IMG/VR virus record: IMGVR_UViG_2651869755_000008
DNA length: 15,189 nucleotides
Direction: 5' to 3' (one strand)
From: a virus
Lineage: Duplodnaviria > Heunggongvirae > Uroviricota > Caudoviricetes
The notes beneath the pieces were generated by a model that worked only from the letters and a program-made list of their open reading frames with translations, was not told the origin of the DNA and did not search any database. Shown here piece by piece: positions 234 to 10,514 of this stretch (positions are counted from its first letter, which is position 1; every line of letters starts with the position of its first letter). Both the position numbers and the translations under genes were made by a program.

Positions 234-1214
234 TTATTCAACAAAGCCCACCCTGGGCATGAAAACAAAATGCAGTTTTTGCTTTTCGGTTCTGCCGTAC
301 TCCCGATGATAAAAGGTGATTTCGCTTTTGCGATGATGCCCGGTCAGTTTGTATTGCTCCTTCAGTGCTTCAAGAGCAGGCTGCAGTAGTGTTACTGTCC
401 GGATCCCGGCATTTGTTTTTGGGGGACCGAACATATCAAGTATCGTCAGGTTTCTTCTGACATTCACTATTCCCTTTTCGAGATCCACATCCTCCCACGC
501 CAGAGCTGCCAGTTCCCCGTGACGAAGTCCTGAGTAAACTGCAAATTTCCACATGTTCTGGCTCTGTCCTTTTTCACTTTCCATTAATGCATTGAATTCT
601 GTTTTAGATAACGGATCAGGCTTTATTCTGTTTCGCTGTAATTTTTTTACTCCTTCAAATGGTTTGGTTGATATAAATCCCGACTGATACGCAAAACGTA
701 ACAGCGAACAGAGCAGGGCGATATAGTTATCAACTGTGCGCACGGTTCTTCCTTTTTTGTTGGATCTTGGATTATCCAGGTAAAGCGTTTCTCCATGCAG
801 CAGTTCATTCCGGTAGTTTAAGATATCGCTATAACGAATATGTGATATCAGGGTACTTTCACAAATTATTATTCTGAGTGTTTTTAATTGTGATTTCGTT
901 TTCTTCATTGTGTTTGTTGTTAACTCTGTCTCTTTAATTTTTGTCCAGATATCACAAAGCTCTCCGAACGTTTTTATGACTCTCGTTGTCACCATTTTTG
1001 CCCCAGTGCTGGACTGGGGAAAACGTCTTAAATACTCAAATTCACCGGAGTTTATTTCATGAACTATCAGCGCTCTTAAATTTCCGGCCTTTTTAATATT
1101 ACTGTTTGTAATCTCCCAGCCTTTTAATGTTTCCCGACATCGTTTTCCTCGAAACATGAACCAGATGCGAATGTATCTACCTCTAATCTCGACACCTGTT
1201 GGTAATTTAGACAT
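234..1214 (-). CDS. intR: Phage tyrosine integrase (Rac IntR-like), apparently C-terminally truncated at 326 aa
   Basis: ORF-track protein has an integrase N-terminal arm-binding region and the box I motif VYSGLRHGELAALAWEDVD. The HxxR and catalytic Tyr motifs expected about 60-90 aa further on are absent, and I found them in no minus-strand frame of 1..233. Start ATG at 1214 lies 1 nt after the xis stop. Confidence 0.75.
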   Translation of the reverse strand: MSKLPTGVEIRGRYIRIWFMFRGKRCRETLKGWEITNSNIKKAGNLRALIVHEINSGEFEYLRRFPQSSTGAKMVTTRVIKTFGELCDIWTKIKETELTTNTMKKTKSQLKTLRIIICESTLISHIRYSDILNYRNELLHGETLYLDNPRSNKKGRTVRTVDNYIALLCSLLRFAYQSGFISTKPFEGVKKLQRNRIKPDPLSKTEFNALMESEKGQSQNMWKFAVYSGLRHGELAALAWEDVDLEKGIVNVRRNLTILDMFGPPKTNAGIRTVTLLQPALEALKEQYKLTGHHRKSEITFYHREYGRTEKQKLHFVFMPRVGFVE

Positions 1215-1215
1215 A

Positions 1216-1431
1216 TCATGAGTCTTTGATAAACTGATTTATCTTTGGATAGTTGTACCAGATAATCCCTCGTTTGCTGTCTGGCTTACCTAAAGGAGAT
1301 ACTCGTTTGAAGTGGAAGCCCTCCACCCAACAGTTCTGGCGGTATGCTTCAATTTGTCTGGCCCCCAGACCAGTGCGAAGCATCAGGCCGTATTCAACCA
1401 TCCACTCTTCATTAAAGATTACTTGTGCCAT
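1216..1431 (-). CDS. xisR: Excisionase-like small protein (YdaQ/XisR-like), 71 aa
   Basis: Internal ATG at 1431 preceded by GAGGTGA; the ORF-track N-terminus begins with TTG at 1455 and has no SD. Product [15 protein letters not shown]... is 71 aa, matching my recollection of Rac YdaQ. Sits immediately upstream of int in the same orientation. Confidence 0.75.
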
Positions 1432-1530
1432 CGCATCACCTCTGGCAGGCGCCAATGTTAGACTGAAATTGACGCCCGATGTTGATTATTAATAATCAGC
1501 TATGAAGTTTTAATTTGAATACAATGCAAT

Positions 1531-1719
1531 TCACGAGGACTGAAGTTTCTCGCAATTAAAATTTATCAGTTTTACTTTCTGCTCTCTGGAAACGCCTGCT
1601 TCTTTTTTACCTGAGAGCATTTTTTCGCATTCTGATTTCGTTAGTTTAGATTTTGAATATCTTGTCCAGTTAGTAGGAGTGCCACCTTCCTTTTCAATAG
1701 TGGCGGTAATTTTATACAT
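1531..1719 (-). CDS. ydaC: Small prophage protein, YdaC-like (start uncertain)
   Basis: ATG at 1719 preceded by GGAGGTG 5 nt upstream; overlaps the ralR stop by 8 nt. The longer 86-aa ORF-track version would overlap ralR by 80 nt. Position between xis and ralR matches Rac order. Confidence 0.55.
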   Translation of the reverse strand: MYKITATIEKEGGTPTNWTRYSKSKLTKSECEKMLSGKKEAGVSREQKVKLINFNCEKLQSS

Positions 1720-1906
1720 GAACACCTCCGTTATTATTTCCAGTGGTTCGTTTATTCCATCTTTCGAGTGCTTCTTTTTCACTTCCACCATAACCGGTTC
1801 GGGATTCGCATCCGTTACACTTCGCTCGGTAATATCCTGAAATGACTTTCACCGTTACTGATGGACAACCACAAAATGGACATGGTTTAACATTGTCATA
1901 TCTCAT
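1712..1906 (-). CDS. ralR: RalR (Lar) restriction-alleviation protein; toxin of the RalR/RalA type I toxin-antitoxin pair
   Basis: Product MRYDNVKPCPFCGCPSVTVKVISGYYRAKCNGCESRTGYGGSEKEALERWNKRTTGNNNGGVHV (64 aa) with a CxxC...CxxC motif, recognised as Rac RalR. The ORF track extends 13 codons upstream (start 1945); the internal start is chosen to fit the known length. Confidence 0.85.
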   Translation of the reverse strand: MRYDNVKPCPFCGCPSVTVKVISGYYRAKCNGCESRTGYGGSEKEALERWNKRTTGNNNGGVHV

Positions 1907-1962
1907 AATTTTTCTCATAAAAAATATTTCAAGTTGGCGGTGCATTACACCGCCAGGCTGAA

Positions 1963-2772
1963 TTATTCCTCTGAATTATCGATTACACTGTATTCCCCGG
2001 TTAATACAGAGGAATCTGCAGGATCGATTGTCAGTGGTTCCTTTTCATCCATTGATACTGCACGCTGGATCTCAATTGATACGGGCAGATATTTGAACAG
2101 GCGACGAATAGCCGTTTTCTTTGCCATTTCTTCCCAGTGAGTTACCCACGGCCCGTTATTACCAGCTTTACTCAGGCTGCGCACCAGCTCAATCTGTTTG
2201 CGCGTCATAACTTCAAACTGAGTACCTCCGTCTTTCAGTCTTGCGACAGCATAGACGTGGGTAACCGGGGCATCTTCGTTTTCTCCCGGGCGGTGTATTA
2301 ACTTTTCATCAAGGCCAAATTCGAAGCTAAACTCGTCACCTTCACGGACAACACGGGCTGACAGGCTGGCGATTTGACCAGAACGGCGAGCCAGATCAAT
2401 CATGCCGCGATAGCCAATGATTAGCTGAACGTTCTTTTTACCGCTCTTTTCGTTTTTATTACCAAAAGGCAGTAAATATGCATGACCGAGGGCGCTACCT
2501 GGCTCAAGTCCGAGCTGTGAACACTGTACGATCGCACTGACAAAACTCATAGTGTCACAGTTTCCTAACGCCGGAACTTTACGAATTTCTGTGGTGGCGA
2601 TACGGATCATACGTTCAGCCGTCATATGGCGTGGAAGAGCTGCTGCCAGTTGCTCTTTCATTGATGGCTGGTTAATAAAACTAATCACGTCGCTATTTTT
2701 AACTGCTGCTGGTGCACGGTTTCCCTGAGTTTTTTGCAGATCGGCTTTTGCGATTGGTGGTTGCTTAGTCAT
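1963..2772 (-). CDS. recT: RecT single-strand annealing recombinase, 269 aa
   Basis: Product from [21 protein letters not shown]... recognised as RecT. ATG at 2772 preceded by AAGGAA; overlaps the recE stop by 8 nt, the classic recET arrangement. Confidence 0.95.
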
Positions 2773-5365
2773 TTGCATATTCCTTAGCCCAGCGGGGCAG
2801 TGATAATGTCTTAATAGCTGGCCATTCATCGGTATTCAGGCAGTCAGACAGGGTTCGCAGATTGCGGTGATATTCCTGTTGACCTGCCAGTTTTGCTTCT
2901 TCGCCCATCATGAAAATTTCAACCGGATAACGTCCGCATTCAATAGTTGTGCTGGCAACCAGAAAAACGAAAGTTGGCTGCACTCCAAACTGTGCTTCAT
3001 AACCGTCACTGTAGAATGCATCCTGAACGTGATAGCGGTAGTCGTAATAAGCGGTTTTGAATCGTTGAATATCCGCCGTAGTTTTCACGTCCATGATCCA
3101 GTGAAATTCAGGGATAATTTTGTCCGGACGGCACCGACACAAAATTCCTGTTTCAGGATCTTCCCAGTAAATTGATGATTCAGCGTGTCCGGCGCTTTCA
3201 ACAAGCCATTGCCCCAGCGGCAAAGCCATAACGCTTTGATACATGAGTTCAATTTTCCGGCCTTCTTCCGCAGTGATAACCGTTTTTCCTGTGCTTGCGC
3301 ATTCCATCAGAAACGCTTTCTCTTCTTCTTTTCCGGCGTTTGTACGGCGGTTAAATTCAGGTGCTACGATAAAGCGGTTACTGAATTCTTCCGGTTCAAG
3401 TACCCGGCAGTGGAAAGCGGTTCCTAAATCGAGCGTTTTTGTCTTTGTGGTGTCCACGGGGGCATTTTTACGCCACAAATATAGTGCCGGAGTATCAGCA
3501 ATGTCATCGAGCTGAGACTTACTGACACCGGGACCCGCGTGGTAATTCTCATTCGAAATTCCGTAATAAATACCTGGCTCTATGTCTTCTACGATTACGG
3601 GATCTGCGACTTCGCCAGTTTCATCACTGCAATCGCGATGCGGATCGCTGCCAGCATTCTCATTGTGCGGATGTTCAGCGCCTTCCATTTCCTCCGGATC
3701 ATTTTCCTTAGCTTCAACCTGACTCTCTTCATCGAATGTTTCCTGGTATGTTGCGTCGCCCATCACCGCACCACAGTCAGGGCAGTTATCCCCGCCAGTC
3801 TGGCCGCAGGCATTGCAGGCTATTTCCGGTTCCTGTTGCACTACTGGCTCAGGTTGATTCATATCCGGGCTGGTTTTTTCCGTTTCTGGCTGGTTCTGGT
3901 ACACACAATCGCGAGTCTGGATCCCCTTTACCCATTTCGGATCGTTCGGGTCGCTAATTCCGTCAACAAATTCACCACGTGATGCAGCAAGCAATTTATC
4001 GGCATCGACAGGATTTTTTGATGGAATGTTTTTCCGGGCTTCATGGAGTTCTGCCCGCAGTTCCTGATATTTCGCATCAACAGAATTTACCTGTGACTGA
4101 GCATCCAGCGGCTGCGTGTCCTGATGATGTTCAGTTGCGTCCGGTTCCATTGTTTCAGCCTCTCCCTGTTCAACTGCCGTTGTTCCAGATGGTTGCGGTT
4201 TTTCTTCATCATCCTGTTTTCCTTCTTCTGTTACTCGCTGCGGCATCGGGGCAGAGGAGCGACCGCAGGCAATATCCACGATTTCCGGATCAGGGTTGGC
4301 ATGATCGGTTTCAGTCAGTACTTTGTTCAGATATTCAGTGACGTGCGCGGGGATGACCTCGATCCCAATTGGTGCTTCTTTTACGGACGCAACCACGATG
4401 GCGCGGGAATAATCCAGCCCGCCAGGCATGGTGATGAATTTGTCGCGGAAAACAGAAAAGGGCGGTTTATTTTCAGCGATAATTTCCTCAATGCGTTTAG
4501 CGTGTGCCGGATGAAGGTTATAGATGTCCAGATCCATTGAACGGGCCAGTACGCCAGTGGCTACGTCGCGCGCCAGTGACGTCAGATCGTGTACGAAACC
4601 TTCGCCGCGATCGGTGAGGTTTCCGCCGCCAGCATTAGCACCGGAAGCCGTGCGAGTGATGTGTGAAACACGATTACCCTTCATCCACTCTTTTGTCAGC
4701 AGTCCTCGATCGGTGTAGTCAGCGTTCAGGTATGCTTCGAAAAAAGCAGTTATCAGTCCCAGGTTTGAATTACCAGGATTAGGGAAAACTTTGTCAGTGT
4801 CACGAACCAGTTTGTGGAGTTCGCGAATTTCCAGCGGGTCGAGCAGGCTGGTTTTGTGGGAAACAGCCAGAGCAGTAACAGCCGGTAGTTCTTCAGCCCG
4901 AGCAATGTGTAATGCCTGGAGTCCGTCGCGTGAAACGTGCGTTACCGGTTTTTCGCTGCCGTGTTGAGCAAGCCAACGAATGGGCAGTTCCTGGCCAGAA
5001 ATTGGGAGTAGCATATTCTCCTCAATCTCAGTCATGTCTTCGCCGTTGACGTTGGTATTGCCTTGATAGTGAGCGTTGTCTGGTGCTGCTCCCGGTTTTA
5101 GTTCCCATGTCATGGAGTCTTTGCTGAGTTGATAGCGTTCACTCCAGGTAAAATCGATCTCACCTTCAGCGGGCAGGTCATTAACGACAGGAAAATTCGT
5201 GGCAACAGCTTTAAAATAGCTGCTCAGTTTTTTACCTGACTTAACGATCAGGTAGTCCAGAGTGGCACAGGTCGATTCAAAATCGTTGCTTGCCCACAGG
5301 ACGACGTCAGGTTCACCGGATGATTTTTTCGCTTTCCGTAACAGGAAGAGTGGTTTTGTGCTCAT
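2765..5365 (-). CDS. recE: RecE exonuclease VIII, 866 aa
   Basis: The 866-aa ORF with a long acidic low-complexity middle region and a C-terminal nuclease domain is recognised as Rac RecE; the length matches my recollection. Immediately upstream of and overlapping recT. Confidence 0.95.
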
Positions 5366-5466
5366 TGTTTTTTAACCTCAACTCAGATTAAAATTCGTTT
5401 TGTTCAGTGAATGATCTTGCCGGATACACACTGTTCATAGCCTGCGCCATACGCAGGCTATTTCTT

Positions 5467-5742
5467 TCAGATTTCACCTTTTAATTTCATTGCAATTAGA
5501 GTTGCCAGAAATTCGGCTTTTTTTTCTGCGGGCAGATTTTTTCCGATATGCACCAGGCACATTTTTTTGACACCTTCATCAAGTGTTTTTACGTTGCCTG
5601 ATGGACCATCGATATCAACCACAGTGAATGGGGTTTCTTTATTTTCTGTTTTAATTACGTAGCCAATGCGCTTTCCTTCCAGATTCACCTCGTGAACAAT
5701 GTCATCGGTAGTTACAACAGTGGCTTCATAATTGGTAATCAT
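5467..5742 (-). CDS. racC: RacC, 91 aa, function unknown
   Basis: Internal ATG at 5742 preceded by AAGGAG; product MITNYEATVVTTDDIVHEV... recognised as RacC. The ORF track adds 16 upstream codons with no SD. Confidence 0.8.
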   Translation of the reverse strand: MITNYEATVVTTDDIVHEVNLEGKRIGYVIKTENKETPFTVVDIDGPSGNVKTLDEGVKKMCLVHIGKNLPAEKKAEFLATLIAMKLKGEI

Positions 5743-5816
5743 GTTTTTCTCCTTAATTAAGGTTGAGCGAATACCTGCCATTTCTGGCATAAATTCAGTT
5801 TCGAATAGTCAATTAA

Positions 5817-5987
5817 TTAAAGTTCATGTGCCATCTGGTCTTTTTCGGCACAAGCTTCACTGCAATATTTTCTCGGTTCGTCTTTTGATAAAATCCCGTG
5901 CATGAAGTGAAGCATTCTTTCAATAGCTTTGCTTTCTTCAACGTCTTTTTTGCAAAGGTGGTAAGCACATTTTATTTTCTTAGTCAT
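5817..5987 (-). CDS. ydaE: YdaE small Cys-rich (zinc-binding type) protein, 56 aa
   Basis: Hand-translated minus-strand [59 protein letters not shown], below the ORF-track length cutoff. Its ATG overlaps the kilR TGA stop (TGATG), suggesting translational coupling. Confidence 0.75.
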   Translation of the reverse strand: MTKKIKCAYHLCKKDVEESKAIERMLHFMHGILSKDEPRKYCSEACAEKDQMAHEL

Positions 5988-6208
5988 CACCATGACTCCG
6001 CCTTTACAGGTAAACCATCACGACCGAGGAAGACTTTAATCATGCGGTCAGTAATGAATGTTTTTGTGGTCAGGTTACGAATATATAGTTTTCGCTTTTT
6101 AATATTGTTTGCCGAGGCAATATATGTCCGGCCTTCATGAAGAACATAATCGCCAGGAGTCACACACTGACGTGGTATTTCATCAGTTCCGAAGTGATGT
6201 GCAATCAT
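5987..6208 (-). CDS. kilR: KilR, FtsZ-targeting cell division inhibitor, 73 aa
   Basis: Product [38 protein letters not shown]... recognised as Rac KilR. ATG at 6208 has GGAGAT 5 nt upstream; the ORF-track ATG at 6220 has no SD. Confidence 0.85.
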
Positions 6209-6389
6209 AATTATCTCCATTTTTACAAATGAACTTTGTTGATGCGGTGTCTGGTGCCTCCAGGTGACTGCAACCAGTTAACAATTACAGTCGGCTTTCC
6301 CACCCAAACCAATAAGGACTAACATGACTTTTAACTGTGCCACGTGCGCTTAGCCGCATTCACCGCATCACAAAATTCACTTTAAAAAG

Positions 6390-6431
6390 GGCGGACATCA
6401 GCCGAACTTCAAGAAAAAAACTGATGCCGCC
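6390..6431 (-). terminator. Intrinsic-terminator-like hairpin on the minus strand, upstream of kilR
   Basis: Minus-strand RNA would read GGCGGCAUCAG - 19-nt loop - CUGAUGUCCGCC followed by CUUUUUAAA: an 11-bp stem with one bulge, then a U5 tract. The plus-strand version has no U tract. The loop is longer than in typical terminators. Confidence 0.4.
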
Positions 6432-6649
6432 AGGACTACACACAGCAATGTCGTTATTTACAACCGGAGGCGCACTCCCACCATTTAAATTTAACAGACA
6501 AGACCGACTCTTTATGGATATCGGAAATGCGCCTTCGTGTTGTGCCCGGTTTTATTTCACCACCTCCGGGCTTCGGTGGTCTCGGCTATACCCCTACAGC
6601 GAGAGCTTGTGTTAACATTTCAATACCCTTACAGTTGAGAGTTATTGAT

Positions 6650-7138
6650 ATGTTGGATGTATTTACTCCATTGTTGAAACTTTTTGCTAACGAGCCACTC
6701 GAAAGACTTATGTATACGATTATCATTTTTGGTCTCACTCTCTGGCTGATACCGAAAGAGTTTACTGTCGCATTCAATGCTTATACTGAAATACCTTGGC
6801 TCTTTCAGATTATCGTTTTTGCCTTTTCTTTCGTGGTCGCCATTTCCTTCTCAAGATTGCGAGCACATATTCAAAAGCATTATTCATTACTACCAGAGCA
6901 ACGAGTATTGCTTCGTTTATCTGAGAAAGAAATCGCTGTATTTAAAGATTTCCTTAAAACAGGAAATCTTATTATCACTTCTCCTTGCCGTAACCCGGTT
7001 ATGAAAAAATTAGAACGGAAGGGCATCATTCAACATCAGAGTGATAGCGCAAACTGTTCTTATTATCTCGTCACCGAAAAATACTCCCATTTTATGAAAT
7101 TATTCTGGAACAGCAGGAGTAGACGTTTTAATCGTTAG
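6650..7138 (+). CDS. sieB: SieB superinfection exclusion protein, 162 aa, membrane
   Basis: Internal ATG at 6650; product MLDVFTPLLKLFANEPLERLMYTIIIFGLTLWLIPKEF... has two hydrophobic segments and is recognised as Rac SieB. The 203-aa ORF-track version begins at an upstream start inside the untranslated region. Confidence 0.85.
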   Translation: MLDVFTPLLKLFANEPLERLMYTIIIFGLTLWLIPKEFTVAFNAYTEIPWLFQIIVFAFSFVVAISFSRLRAHIQKHYSLLPEQRVLLRLSEKEIAVFKDFLKTGNLIITSPCRNPVMKKLERKGIIQHQSDSANCSYYLVTEKYSHFMKLFWNSRSRRFNR

Positions 7139-7290
7139 CTTACTGTGTGCTTCTCCAACCATCGGCGCGCACCAGTTTCGGTTTTAAATGTTTTGCTTTT
7201 GGTATACGTCATGGCAGTGAACGTTCCATCCTGGTTGGGGAACACGCCGCACACCAGGGATTCGTTGTTGCCGAGGTCGATTTTTTGCAT
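7135..7290 (-). CDS. ydaF: YdaF small protein, 51 aa
   Basis: Hand-translated MQKIDLGNNESLVCGVFPNQDGTFTAMTYTKSKTFKTETGARRWLEKHTVS*. Length and position (between sieB and racR, minus strand) match Rac ydaF. Its 3' end overlaps the sieB stop by 4 nt, convergently. Confidence 0.7.
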   Translation of the reverse strand: MQKIDLGNNESLVCGVFPNQDGTFTAMTYTKSKTFKTETGARRWLEKHTVS

Positions 7291-7313
7291 TTTGCGAATC
7301 TCACATCTTGTTG

Positions 7314-7436
7314 CTACGTATAGCGACTTCTGCCTGCCAGAGATCCTAGTCGTTGCTGCGTAAAGCCTGCACAGCCTGGTTGTAAGTGATACCGCAACAA
7401 TCCATCAAATACTGAACTACTTCGTAATGCACCATC
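7314..7436 (-). CDS. ydaG: YdaG-like small protein, 40 aa
   Basis: Hand-translated MVALRSSSVFDGLLRYHLQPGCAGFTQQRLGSLAGRSRYT* with a strong SD (AAGGGGAG) 5-6 nt upstream. Position matches Rac ydaG, but the length (40 versus a recalled 44 aa) and identity are not verified. Confidence 0.45.
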   Translation of the reverse strand, partial: DGALRSSSVFDGLLRYHLQPGCAGFTQQRLGSLAGRSRYT

Positions 7437-7603
7437 TTATCTCTCCCCTTAACGCCGGGTGGCGGAACTAACTGCTGCACTGCAAAATTTGAATCCCGCC
7501 GTCATGTTCATACGCCTCGGGCTGGCTACTTAACCCCTGACCACTGCCTGGTAACTCGAAGTATTGCCCGGCGTTCTGTGGGGCGGGGTGGGTTGGTAGG
7601 TAT

Positions 7604-7648
7604 ATAATGTACTTTATGTTCATCATTGTAAAGTACTTTAAGTACATT
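7604..7648 (-). promoter_or_regulatory. Candidate leftward promoter flanked by ATGTACTT-type palindromic motifs
   Basis: On the minus strand, TTTACA (plus 7627..7632), a 17-nt spacer, then CATTAT (plus 7604..7609). The site is overlapped by ATGTACTT (7607..7614), the palindrome AAGTACTT (7633..7640) and AAGTACAT (7641..7648). Called by eye only. Confidence 0.3.
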
Positions 7649-7722
7649 TTATGTATAAAAAAATGAGACGGGATAAAGTGAAGCACAAACCCGGAGGGGG
7701 ACGCTACCGGATTTATGCTGGT

Positions 7723-8142
7723 TTAAGAGGCTTTTTGTTTTTTCTTTCGTGCTAACTCTTCGTAAATTGCATTGTACTTCTGTTTTTTCTCCTCAAGAGT
7801 TTTTAAAAGTTCATCTGTCTCACTGTCAGGGAGCTCGTCCAGAAGGTCAATGATGATTTTTTGTCTTGGATTTAACTCCTGATAGAAACGTATCTGTCCA
7901 CTTTCTTCTGTATCCTCTCCCAAAAGATAGGTTGGTGTTGTTCCAATGAGTGTTGCTAATTCCCTTAATTTCTCTCGGCGAGGAATTGTTTCACCATTAA
8001 ACCATTTGCTAACCGCTTTTGGTGTTAATTTCATTCGACGGGCAATTTCTGCCTGCCTTCCATGTTGTTCATAACCAGCGTTTTCACAGGCTAGCGCAAG
8101 CCTACTGGCGAACTCTTTACGCGCTTTATCTTCATGAACCAT
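7723..8142 (-). CDS. racR: RacR-like prophage repressor with an XRE-family HTH, 139 aa
   Basis: N-terminal HTH-like segment (QAEIARRMKLTPKAVSKWFNGETIPRREKLRELATLIG), no LexA-like peptidase domain, divergent from ydaS-ydaT as in Rac. No in-frame ATG upstream before a stop. Confidence 0.8.
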   Translation of the reverse strand: MVHEDKARKEFASRLALACENAGYEQHGRQAEIARRMKLTPKAVSKWFNGETIPRREKLRELATLIGTTPTYLLGEDTEESGQIRFYQELNPRQKIIIDLLDELPDSETDELLKTLEEKKQKYNAIYEELARKKKQKAS

Positions 8143-8221
8143 AAGTTCAATGATATTCGCTCTTGAATGTACTGTCAGTTCTGTTATAGCATGTACTCAA
8201 AGTTCACATTGTGAGGATGAT
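8143..8221. promoter_or_regulatory. Divergent racR / ydaS promoter-operator region
   Basis: 79-bp intergenic region with repeated motifs: AAGTTCA at 8143..8149 and 8200..8206, ATGTACT at 8167..8173 and 8191..8197. The placement mirrors a lambda OR-type switch region. Confidence 0.55.
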
Positions 8222-8476
8222 ATGAACCAGAAAACACTTGAAGATGTAATCAAAACTGTTCGCGTTTCTGTTGTGGCCGACGTTTGTGGTGTCAGCCAAA
8301 GAGCAATCTACAAATGGATGGATAACGGAAAATTGCCTCGCACAGAATATACCGGCGAAACAAATTACGCTGAAAAAATCGCTCATGCATCAAACGGATT
8401 ATTTTCTGCCGATGCAATTTTAACTATTGGCAGAAATAAAACTACTACGAAAAAGCTGATGGGAGTTGATTCATGA
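8222..8476 (+). CDS. ydaS: YdaS-like Cro/HTH protein, 84 aa
   Basis: ATG at 8222 with GAGG 6 nt upstream; HTH-like VADVCGVSQRAIYKWMDNGKLP. Its stop overlaps the ydaT start (ATGA). The ORF-track N-terminal 24 codons have no SD. Confidence 0.75.
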   Translation: MNQKTLEDVIKTVRVSVVADVCGVSQRAIYKWMDNGKLPRTEYTGETNYAEKIAHASNGLFSADAILTIGRNKTTTKKLMGVDS

Positions 8477-9767: not shown

Positions 9768-10514
9768 ATGAAAAATATTGCGGCAGGCGGCATTCTTGAA
9801 CGTATCCGCAGACTGGCCCCGCCACATGTAACCGCCCCATTCAAAACGGTAGCGGAGTGGCGCGAGTGGCAACTTTCCGAAGGCCAGAAACGTTGTGAGG
9901 AGATCAACCGTCAGAATCGTCAGTTGCGGGTGGAAAAAATTCTGAATCGCTCTGGCATCCAGCCATTGCACCGCAAATGCTCGTTTGCGAATTACCGGGT
10001 GCAGAACGACGGTCAGCGATACGCGTTGAACCAGGCGAAATCTATCGCTGATGAACTGATGACCGGGTGTACAAATTTTGCGTTCAGCGGAAAACCTGGT
10101 ACCGGAAAAAACCATCTGGCGGCGGCTATCGGGAATCGCCTGCTGAAAGATGGCCAGACAGTGATTGTGGTTACCGTGGCTGATGTCATGAGTGCTCTAC
10201 ACGCCAGCTATGACGACGGGCAATCAGGCGAAAAATTTTTGCGGGAACTGTGCCAAGTGGATCTGCTGGTTCTTGATGAAATTGGCATTCAGCGCGAGAC
10301 AAAAAACGAGCAGGTGGTGCTGCACCAGATTGTTGATCGCCGGACAGCGTCGATGCGCAGCGTGGGGATGCTGACAAACCTGAACTATGAGGCGATGAAA
10401 ACATTGCTCGGCGAGCGGATTATGGATCGCATGACCATGAACGGCGGACGCTGGGTGAATTTTAACTGGGAGAGCTGGCGTCCGAATGTCGTCCTGCCAG
10501 GAATTGCGAAGTGA
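9768..10514 (+). CDS. ydaV: DnaC-like helicase loader / replication protein (YdaV), 248 aa
   Basis: Walker [12 protein letters not shown] and Walker B LLVLDEIG in an AAA+ DnaC/IstB-like context; directly follows ydaU. Confidence 0.85.

Follow-up and report, generated by a model that had tools for sequence, protein, structure and literature searches.

RESULTS

A leftward hairpin between sieB and kilR of a Rac prophage

The stretch of 15,189 nucleotides (nt) from IMG/VR virus record IMGVR_UViG_2651869755_000008 (Caudoviricetes), referred to here in its entirety as the window, is identified by its open reading frames (ORFs) and BLAST matches as a Rac prophage of Escherichia coli, with recT, recE, racC, ydaE, kilR, sieB, ydaF, ydaG, and onward (window coordinates equal positions in locus L001 minus 1022). 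Nucleotide comparison shows that 249..7598 is collinear with the Rac prophage of strain K-12 at 99.7% identity, and the part considered here, a hairpin on the leftward (minus) strand at 6390..6431 between sieB and kilR, matches K-12 at 100%. An original prediction, made from the letters of the window, had read this hairpin as a terminator that gates kilR and the recombination genes beyond it. The element is functional but already known, being the terminator of a published and annotated small RNA (sRNA), KilS; the prediction was right about terminator, strand, and position and wrong in its emphasis. The features of the locus are as follows.

6390..6431, minus strand: terminator hairpin of KilS (sequence, minimum free energy, pair probabilities, and match to Rfam DicF)
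6384..6389, minus strand: C followed by a tract of five U's (sequence; published KilS 3′ end at 6384)
6384..6481, minus strand: KilS sRNA (b4833), 98 nt, Hfq dependent, stationary phase (RefSeq; northern, RIL-seq, and transcription start site data in PMC8175672)
6434..6450, minus strand: RNase E site at 6450, then the 16-mer AUUGCUGUGUGUAGUC at 6449..6434, a putative seed (published site; alignment with rprA)
6488..6496, minus strand: candidate extended −10 element TGtTAAATT, read from the sequence, ending 6 nt before the transcription start site at 6481
6209..6383, minus strand: structured 5′ untranslated region (UTR) of kilR (fold, homology with Qin, and resemblance to STnc100)
5987..6208, minus strand: kilR, FtsZ/cell-division inhibitor, the first gene past the terminator (annotation, translation)
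7135..7290, minus strand: ydaF, DUF1391, a leftward gene upstream of kilS (annotation, Pfam)
7346..7480, minus strand: ydaG, also leftward and upstream of kilS (annotation); the counterparts of ydaG/ydaF in the Qin dicB operon are ydfA/ydfB
6650..7138, plus strand: sieB, divergent from kilS (Pfam SieB); the start at 6650 is that of K-12

The leftward transcript folds, as had been proposed, into a GC-rich stem of 11 base pairs (8 of them G-C) with one bulge and a 19-nt loop. The 5′ arm GGCGGCAUCAG (6431..6421) and the 3′ arm CUGAUG-U-CCGCC (6401..6390, with U6395 bulged) enclose the loop UUUUUUUCUUGAAGUUCGG (6420..6402), and after the hairpin come C6389, UUUUU (6388..6384), and AAAG, so that a GC-rich stem is joined directly to a U-run, as in an intrinsic terminator. 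The ATG of kilR, at 6208, lies 176 nt downstream of the hairpin and U-run (about 180 nt in the prediction). Calculation of the folding energy, which had been put forward as a check, gives a minimum free energy (MFE) of −19.5 kcal/mol for 6440..6375 (z = −3.06; 1 of 200 shuffled sequences is as stable) and −18.7 kcal/mol for the 42-nt hairpin by itself. The fold is stable in all upstream contexts: each of the 11 pairs has an ensemble probability of 0.97 to 1.00 with RNA starting 57, 93, 172, 312, or 512 nt upstream. A structural attenuator, which had been named as another possible role, is unlikely, there being no alternative fold to compete with the stem. Transcripts of sieB, and plus-strand transcripts in general, are not terminated here, since the plus strand has no U-run after the hairpin.

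Taken by sequence alone, the hairpin is moderately unusual. A custom scan, which replaced a generic terminator scan, looked for hairpins of −15 kcal/mol or lower followed by T5; it returned 2 in the window and 1.0 ± 1.0 in shuffled versions, and about 10% of shuffled windows hold a T5-linked hairpin of −19 kcal/mol or lower.

The hairpin is the 3′ end of KilS, an sRNA

RefSeq annotates a noncoding RNA gene, kilS (b4833, “small RNA KilS”), on the minus strand of K-12 between kilR and sieB (NC_000913.3, 1418405..1418502). These coordinates translate to 6384..6481 of the window, where 98 of 98 nt are identical; the hairpin forms nt 51 to 92 of the RNA, whose annotated 3′ end falls on the final U of the U-run. 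The definition of KilS comes from Bar, Argaman, Altuvia, and Margalit (Front Microbiol 2021; PMC8175672), who predicted it from Hfq RIL-seq, verified it by northern blotting (their probe 1, GCGGACATCAGCCGAACTTCAAG, falls inside the hairpin), and classed it as “kilR 5′UTR.” It accumulates in stationary phase, is missing in an hfq deletion, and has yncL as a reproducible RIL-seq partner (PMC8175672). A mapped primary transcription start site (TSS) at 1418502 (window 6481; data of Thomason 2015 via Table S6) and an internal RNase E site at 1418471 (window 6450; data of Clarke 2014) are listed, along with a 3′ end at 1418405 (window 6384; Table 2 and Table S6) (PMC8175672). Published RNA-seq and northern data therefore place the 3′ end of an in vivo RNA within the U-run, next to the interval of about 6385..6390 in which minus-strand 3′ ends had been anticipated. 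The transcript ending here had been taken for read-through from ydaG-ydaF; the known RNA is instead an independent 98-nt sRNA with its mapped start at 6481.

The sequence TGtTAAATT may be the promoter element of kilS: its spacing from the TSS is correct, and a consensus scan did not call the site. KilS together with this promoter occurs in 1,755 of 5,426 complete E. coli genomes, and in 30 of 30 sampled records of those genomes, kilS is not annotated under the match. In some phage records, sieB is started at an upstream ATG at 6527 (6527..7138, plus strand) and then overlaps the kilS promoter region; matches to a KilS query in those records carry the label “superinfection exclusion protein B.”

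The hairpin is homologous to the DicF terminator of the Qin prophage

The Rfam model of DicF (RF00039) matches 6389..6444 (minus strand) over its full length with 39.1 bits (E = 1.2e-6), short of its gathering threshold (GA) of 48 bits. An alignment of Rac with Qin retains the stem base GGCGG.AUCAGUUUU and CCGCCCUUUUUAAAGUGAAUUUUGUGAUG / CCGCCCUUUUUAAAG, followed by approximately 75 nt at approximately 95% identity; the two diverge in the single-stranded 5′ part, in the upper stem, and in the loop. Gene order is likewise shared. The Qin order is dicA, ydfA (DUF1391), ydfB, ydfC, dicF, dicB, and that of Rac is repressor, ydaG, ydaF (DUF1391), sieB (on the other strand), kilS, kilR, such that both prophages run from a repressor through small ORFs of the DUF1391 type and an sRNA to a division inhibitor. 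On this alignment and synteny, the hairpin and the flank 3′ of it correspond in Rac to the DicF terminator.

Rho-independent termination yields a 53-nt DicF; the terminator is leaky ahead of dicB, giving both terminated DicF and a read-through dicBF mRNA, and cleavage of the latter by RNase III produces a 72-nt form; DicF binds Hfq; and its 3′ end, made up largely of this hairpin, pairs with ftsZ and pykA (PMC5069750). A pairing of the KilS loop with ftsZ, suggested by analogy (11 pairs, 3 of them G·U), was considered and dropped. Between the loop AGUUUUUUUCU (6402..6422, minus strand) and the ftsZ Shine-Dalgarno region GGAGAGAAACU, the energy was no better than that for shuffled loops (49 of 300), in a test that is also insensitive for true DicF (74 of 300).

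KilS carries a putative RprA-like seed

Upstream of the terminator, the resemblance is to another sRNA. KilS AAAUAACGACAUUGCUGUGUGUAGUCC aligns with RprA AAACAACGA-AUUGCUGUGUGUAGUCU at 25 of 28 positions, including a 16-nt exact match that stands directly 5′ of the terminator in each RNA. This 16-mer is the exact 5′ start of processed RprA (the last 47 nt of RprA), and the KilS RNase E site falls one nt before it, at the same aligned cut position as in RprA. The Rfam RprA model (RF00034) aligns to 6410..6521 with 28.1 bits, far below its threshold of 70. Among the hairpin variants described below, those of the KilS class contain exact matches to rprA of 11 to 20 nt and those of the DicF class at most 6 to 9 nt.

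The two RNAs also have a partner in common, with yncL being among the RprA targets detected by both TRIC-seq and RIL-seq (bioRxiv 10.1101/2025.09.11.675593). Both are predicted to pair, through the shared motif, with ACUAUACACA..GCAAUG in the yncL 5′ UTR, just 5′ of the Shine-Dalgarno sequence, with energies of −20.8 and −15.7 kcal/mol (4 of 300 shuffled seeds are as good); the segments of this predicted pairing are UGUGUGUAGU / ACUAUACACA. For KilS against the rpoS leader, RNAduplex energies involve long internal loops and are uninformative. The paper on KilS mentions none of DicF, RprA, or Rac (PMC8175672), and no prior description of an RprA-like prophage RNA was found in the searchable literature, which does not cover older papers from the Bouche laboratory; to that extent, a DicF-type scaffold with an RprA-type seed is apparently undescribed.

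A family of prophage elements with possibly exchanged seeds

We scanned viral (IMG/VR) contigs for the conserved 3′ flank and obtained 120 loci (L004 to L123) containing 25 distinct hairpin variants. All of the variants fold, at −10 to −22 kcal/mol, ahead of the same CUUUUUAAA. Their upper stems vary by subfamily (CAUCAG/CUGAUG, GGUAUC/GAUACC, or the DicF register), and the changes include C-G to U-A as well as one inserted A that pairs the U bulged in KilS. A chance hairpin with no function, in favor of which speak the tenth or so of dinucleotide shuffles that hold a similar T5-linked hairpin and the weak formal covariation (see Discussion), is already contradicted by the coincidence with the KilS 3′ end, the end of an RNA that has been detected by experiment. 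The mapped 3′ end of an annotated RNA, the homology with the DicF terminator, and conservation in 1,755 genomes and as 25 folding variants put the hairpin beyond chance, and we give that explanation next to no credence.

The 5′ single-stranded seeds of these loci fall into at least three classes: DicF-like, KilS/RprA-like, and CAUGUUGAUU-type. Tabulated against the downstream gene (kilR, dicB, or neither), a DicF seed stands with dicB in 67 cases and a KilS seed with kilR in 22, and mixed combinations also occur, meaning that the linkage holds mostly but not strictly. That the seed classes are shuffled relative to the downstream gene suggests modular exchange.

When genomes were scanned for the motif adjacent to GGCGG, a further class emerged, GCUGUGUGUAGUCUUGGCGGUACC...GGUACCGCCCUUUUUACA, in which the GCUGUGUGUAGUC motif is joined to a GGCGGUACC...GGUACCGCC terminator (the pattern has many chance matches outside the Enterobacterales, and only enterobacterial matches with a terminator are interpreted). 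This e14-type element is present in E. coli, Shigella, Citrobacter, Serratia, Enterobacter, Klebsiella, Erwinia, and others (among E. coli, in 1,779 of 5,426 genomes), and on loci L128, L198, L201, L131, L132, and others. In K-12, it is situated at NC_000913.3 ~1,201,161-1,201,315 on the minus strand (L213 ~3620..3775, minus strand) of prophage e14, within ymfH, an ORF of doubtful status, and upstream of xisE-intE; sequence akin to the kilR leader precedes it. “ymfH” is an sRNA candidate in Bar et al. 2021 (PMC8175672); no Rfam family matches the e14-type loci at curated thresholds.

The kilR leader and the origin of the KilS 3′ end

The RNA between the U-run and kilR is highly structured (MFE of −63.6 kcal/mol; z = −4.15) and is closed by a long-range stem of approximately 22 base pairs between 6361..6382 and 6227..6249, which shows C-G / U·G / U-A variation across variants. 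This leader is homologous to the dicF-dicB spacer, its first ~75 nt being the segment that is ~95% identical to Qin, and it scores 28 bits against Rfam STnc100, below the GA of 47. The flanks of the leader are better conserved between Rac and Qin than are the adjoining genes, and relatives of the leader sequence are found in Stx phages as well as in P7 and D6, which are P1-like phages. A role like that of the HK022 put antiterminator was entertained for the leader and gained no support, as the phage search returned Rac/Qin-type, Stx, P7, and D6 sequences and not HK022. By analogy with DicF, the leader likely has an RNase III site, and the long stem is a plausible place for the cut that ends 72-nt DicF in Qin.

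Such a cut offers another account of the KilS 3′ end, in which the hairpin is a processing or stability element: longer RNAs would be cleaved downstream (e.g., by RNase III in the leader stem) and trimmed by exonucleases back to the hairpin. The 22-base-pair stem begins only 2 nt past the U-run, RNase III does give DicF a longer 3′ end in Qin, and the U-run is short, all of which would accord with processing. Yet the mapped end is exactly at the end of the U-run and not at the base of the stem, the homologous Qin hairpin is reported to terminate Rho-independently, and hairpin plus U-run are kept in 25 of 25 variants as well as in RprA-like and e14-type elements whose downstream sequences differ. 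We regard processing as quite improbable; following the DicF precedent, the KilS 3′ end probably arises by termination, not trimming.

Control of kilR

The known control of kilR is silencing by Rho/NusG, which is relieved when OxyS represses nusG (PMC5793797; PMC12482147). The original prediction had cast the hairpin itself as a regulated checkpoint, one that would block the leftward operon (kilR, racC, recE, and recT) until overcome by antitermination or an RNA switch, in the manner of lambda tL under N. Its position agrees with this, as it lies in the leftward operon ahead of kilR and recET; dicB is expressed by read-through of the homologous DicF terminator; and a consensus scan finds a promoter-like site upstream of ydaG (7632..7604, minus strand). 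The components of such a switch, however, did not come to light. Pfam searches of the ORFs at 5467..8142 identified only DUF1391, SieB, and helix-turn-helix domains, with no N-like or other antiterminator family among the leftward ORFs (ydaG and a 72-amino-acid ORF are without a family). The minus strand is also without a boxA-like sequence, as all five one-mismatch matches to boxA CGCUCUUUA are on the plus strand, in a number no greater than that expected by chance (no separate search was made for boxB). The stem keeps a probability of ~1.0 when 57 to 512 nt of RNA precede it, and no antiterminator fold is predicted; moreover, the RNA documented to end at the hairpin starts only 98 nt upstream, from its own TSS, and the control known for kilR is that by Rho/NusG.

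A checkpoint of this kind is accordingly unlikely in our estimation, although somewhat less so than processing. Of the proposed gate ahead of kilR, what survives is a partial gate, a fair analogy from the leaky DicF terminator of Qin; a lambda-like antitermination checkpoint is unsupported. Given that published work assigns the silencing of kilR to Rho and NusG, the hairpin is better viewed as a leaky insulator acting in series with Rho than as the checkpoint.

Other features of the window

The immunity region (7599..8466, with repressor/cro-like genes) and the right end beyond 10986 have no nucleotide similarity to K-12 Rac. The lack of any similarity between 7599..8466 and K-12 racR/ydaS marks the source as a strain other than K-12, and on sequence, the prophage is Rac-like with a different immunity module. 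A perfect 10-base-pair palindromic hairpin, ATAGCCTGCG...CGCAGGCTAT, occupies 5437..5461 in the racC-recE intergenic region and was called terminator-like on the plus strand. The sole other T-run-linked hairpin of −15 kcal/mol or lower in the window is at ~10111..10165 (minus strand; −15.4 kcal/mol, then TTTTTT), in the region of the replication genes.

DISCUSSION

The hairpin at 6390..6431 is very probably both the Rho-independent terminator and the 3′ structural module of KilS. This assignment draws on the fold, the identity with kilS, the 5′ and 3′ ends, the Hfq dependence, and the homology and synteny with dicF, each documented in this study or in print. Several points weigh against it. 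A generic terminator scan (loops of 3 to 8 nt) does not call the hairpin, whose loop of 19 nt (15 with two G·U pairs) and five U's depart from the short loop (3 to 8 nt) and run of 7 or 8 U's of the classical form, and a long loop (15 to 19 nt) and a short U-run usually reduce termination efficiency. Covariation evaluated on one fixed structure across the 25 variants is not significant, with 86.7% of cells paired and one double-change pair (C-G to U-A), which is no better than in shuffles; the search pattern itself fixed part of the 3′ arm and lower stem, and subfamilies use different upper-stem registers, and covariation is not used as evidence. The published 3′ end is an estimate from RNA-seq and northern data rather than from a dedicated 3′-end map, and the Term-seq supplements of PMC7815308, which are possibly incomplete, have no entry for kilR, sieB, or 1418404-6. 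Lastly, kilR is expressed upon a drop in NusG or Rho, implying that the hairpin is substantially leaky or bypassed. As to the loop, whose length had been raised as a caveat from the start, it is indeed long, but this is a trait of the family, and DicF has the same architecture.

We envisage the following sequence of events. Transcription would begin at 6481 on the minus strand, and leftward early transcription from the ydaG-ydaF side could also enter. Once transcribed, the stem GGCGGCAUCAG / CUGAUG(U)CCGCC would form and, with U5, release most polymerases at 6384; leftward early transcripts from ydaG-ydaF would very likely be terminated at the hairpin too. The stable hairpin and U-tail of the released RNA would let Hfq bind and stabilize KilS. 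The usual 3′ module of sRNAs that bind Hfq is a hairpin with a U-tail, and it would be because its 3′ end is such a module that KilS accumulates only with Hfq. Cleavage by RNase E at 6450 would expose AUUGCUGUGUGUAGUC, directly 5′ of the hairpin, for pairing with targets such as yncL. Polymerases that read through would pass into the structured 176-nt leader and on to kilR-ydaE-racC-recE-recT, and the hairpin would thereby insulate toxic kilR as a leaky gate in series with Rho/NusG silencing. Termination rather than trimming, the efficiency of the terminator, and its share in the gating of kilR are what we infer.

It is roughly an even bet, in our assessment, that KilS is a modular prophage sRNA in which an RprA seed is mounted on a DicF-type terminator scaffold and that it acts as a phage-encoded mimic or competitor of RprA on targets such as yncL, as one of a family that swaps seeds. 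RNase E-cut KilS would present (C)AUUGCUGUGUGUAGUC, the same 5′ sequence as processed RprA. The family of lambdoid-prophage sRNAs would keep the terminator and the structured leader of the division inhibitor and swap the seed, with the terminator serving as a conserved Hfq-binding chassis for seed exchange.

The finding of the hairpin adds little in itself, as KilS has already been published and the reference genome carries its annotation. It is of practical use for annotation: kilS is unannotated in the sampled records, and some phage records cover the region with an over-long sieB ORF. Leakage of kilR is the reason that NusG and Rho are essential in K-12, and an intrinsic terminator and a structured leader, which stand between any upstream promoter and kilR, are now to be weighed alongside Rho. 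If the modular reading is true, KilS would clearly exemplify both the modular exchange of seeds between phage sRNAs and the mimicry by a phage of a host sRNA, the core regulator RprA.

Comparison with known systems

Compared with KilS of K-12, the element is the same object, without difference in sequence; only the host strain is non-K-12.

With DicF, it shares the stem base GGCGG/CCGCC, the AUCAGUUUU that opens the loop, and the CUUUUUAAAG tail with the ~75 nt after it, as well as a site between DUF1391-type small ORFs and a division inhibitor gene, Hfq association, and a long terminator loop. The 5′ parts are unrelated (UUUCUGGUGACGUUU in DicF, RprA-like in KilS), and KilS has its own TSS (although it may also be processed from longer transcripts), whereas the 5′ end of DicF is cut by RNase E from the operon transcript. 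The gene downstream is kilR in the one case and dicB in the other, although mixed pairings exist elsewhere.

The likeness to RprA consists of the 16-mer beside the terminator, the RNase E cut position, Hfq dependence, and yncL as a partner with one predicted common site. In contrast, the terminator hairpin and the 5′ half, including most of the rpoS-pairing region, are unrelated, and the KilS locus belongs to a prophage instead of lying between ydiK and ydiL.

Like the sRNAs derived from 5′ UTRs by premature termination (e.g., MotR, from the motA 5′ UTR), KilS has its own TSS and ends at a terminator before the ORF; it differs from the simple case in that a start of the kilR mRNA at the KilS promoter is only putative.

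Finally, the element recalls lambda tL under N/nut in being an intrinsic terminator that precedes kil and recombination genes in the early leftward operon of a lambdoid prophage. It departs from tL in that no N homologue or boxA was found, Rac has a repressor module of the DicA/RacR type, and the terminator also serves as an sRNA 3′ end.

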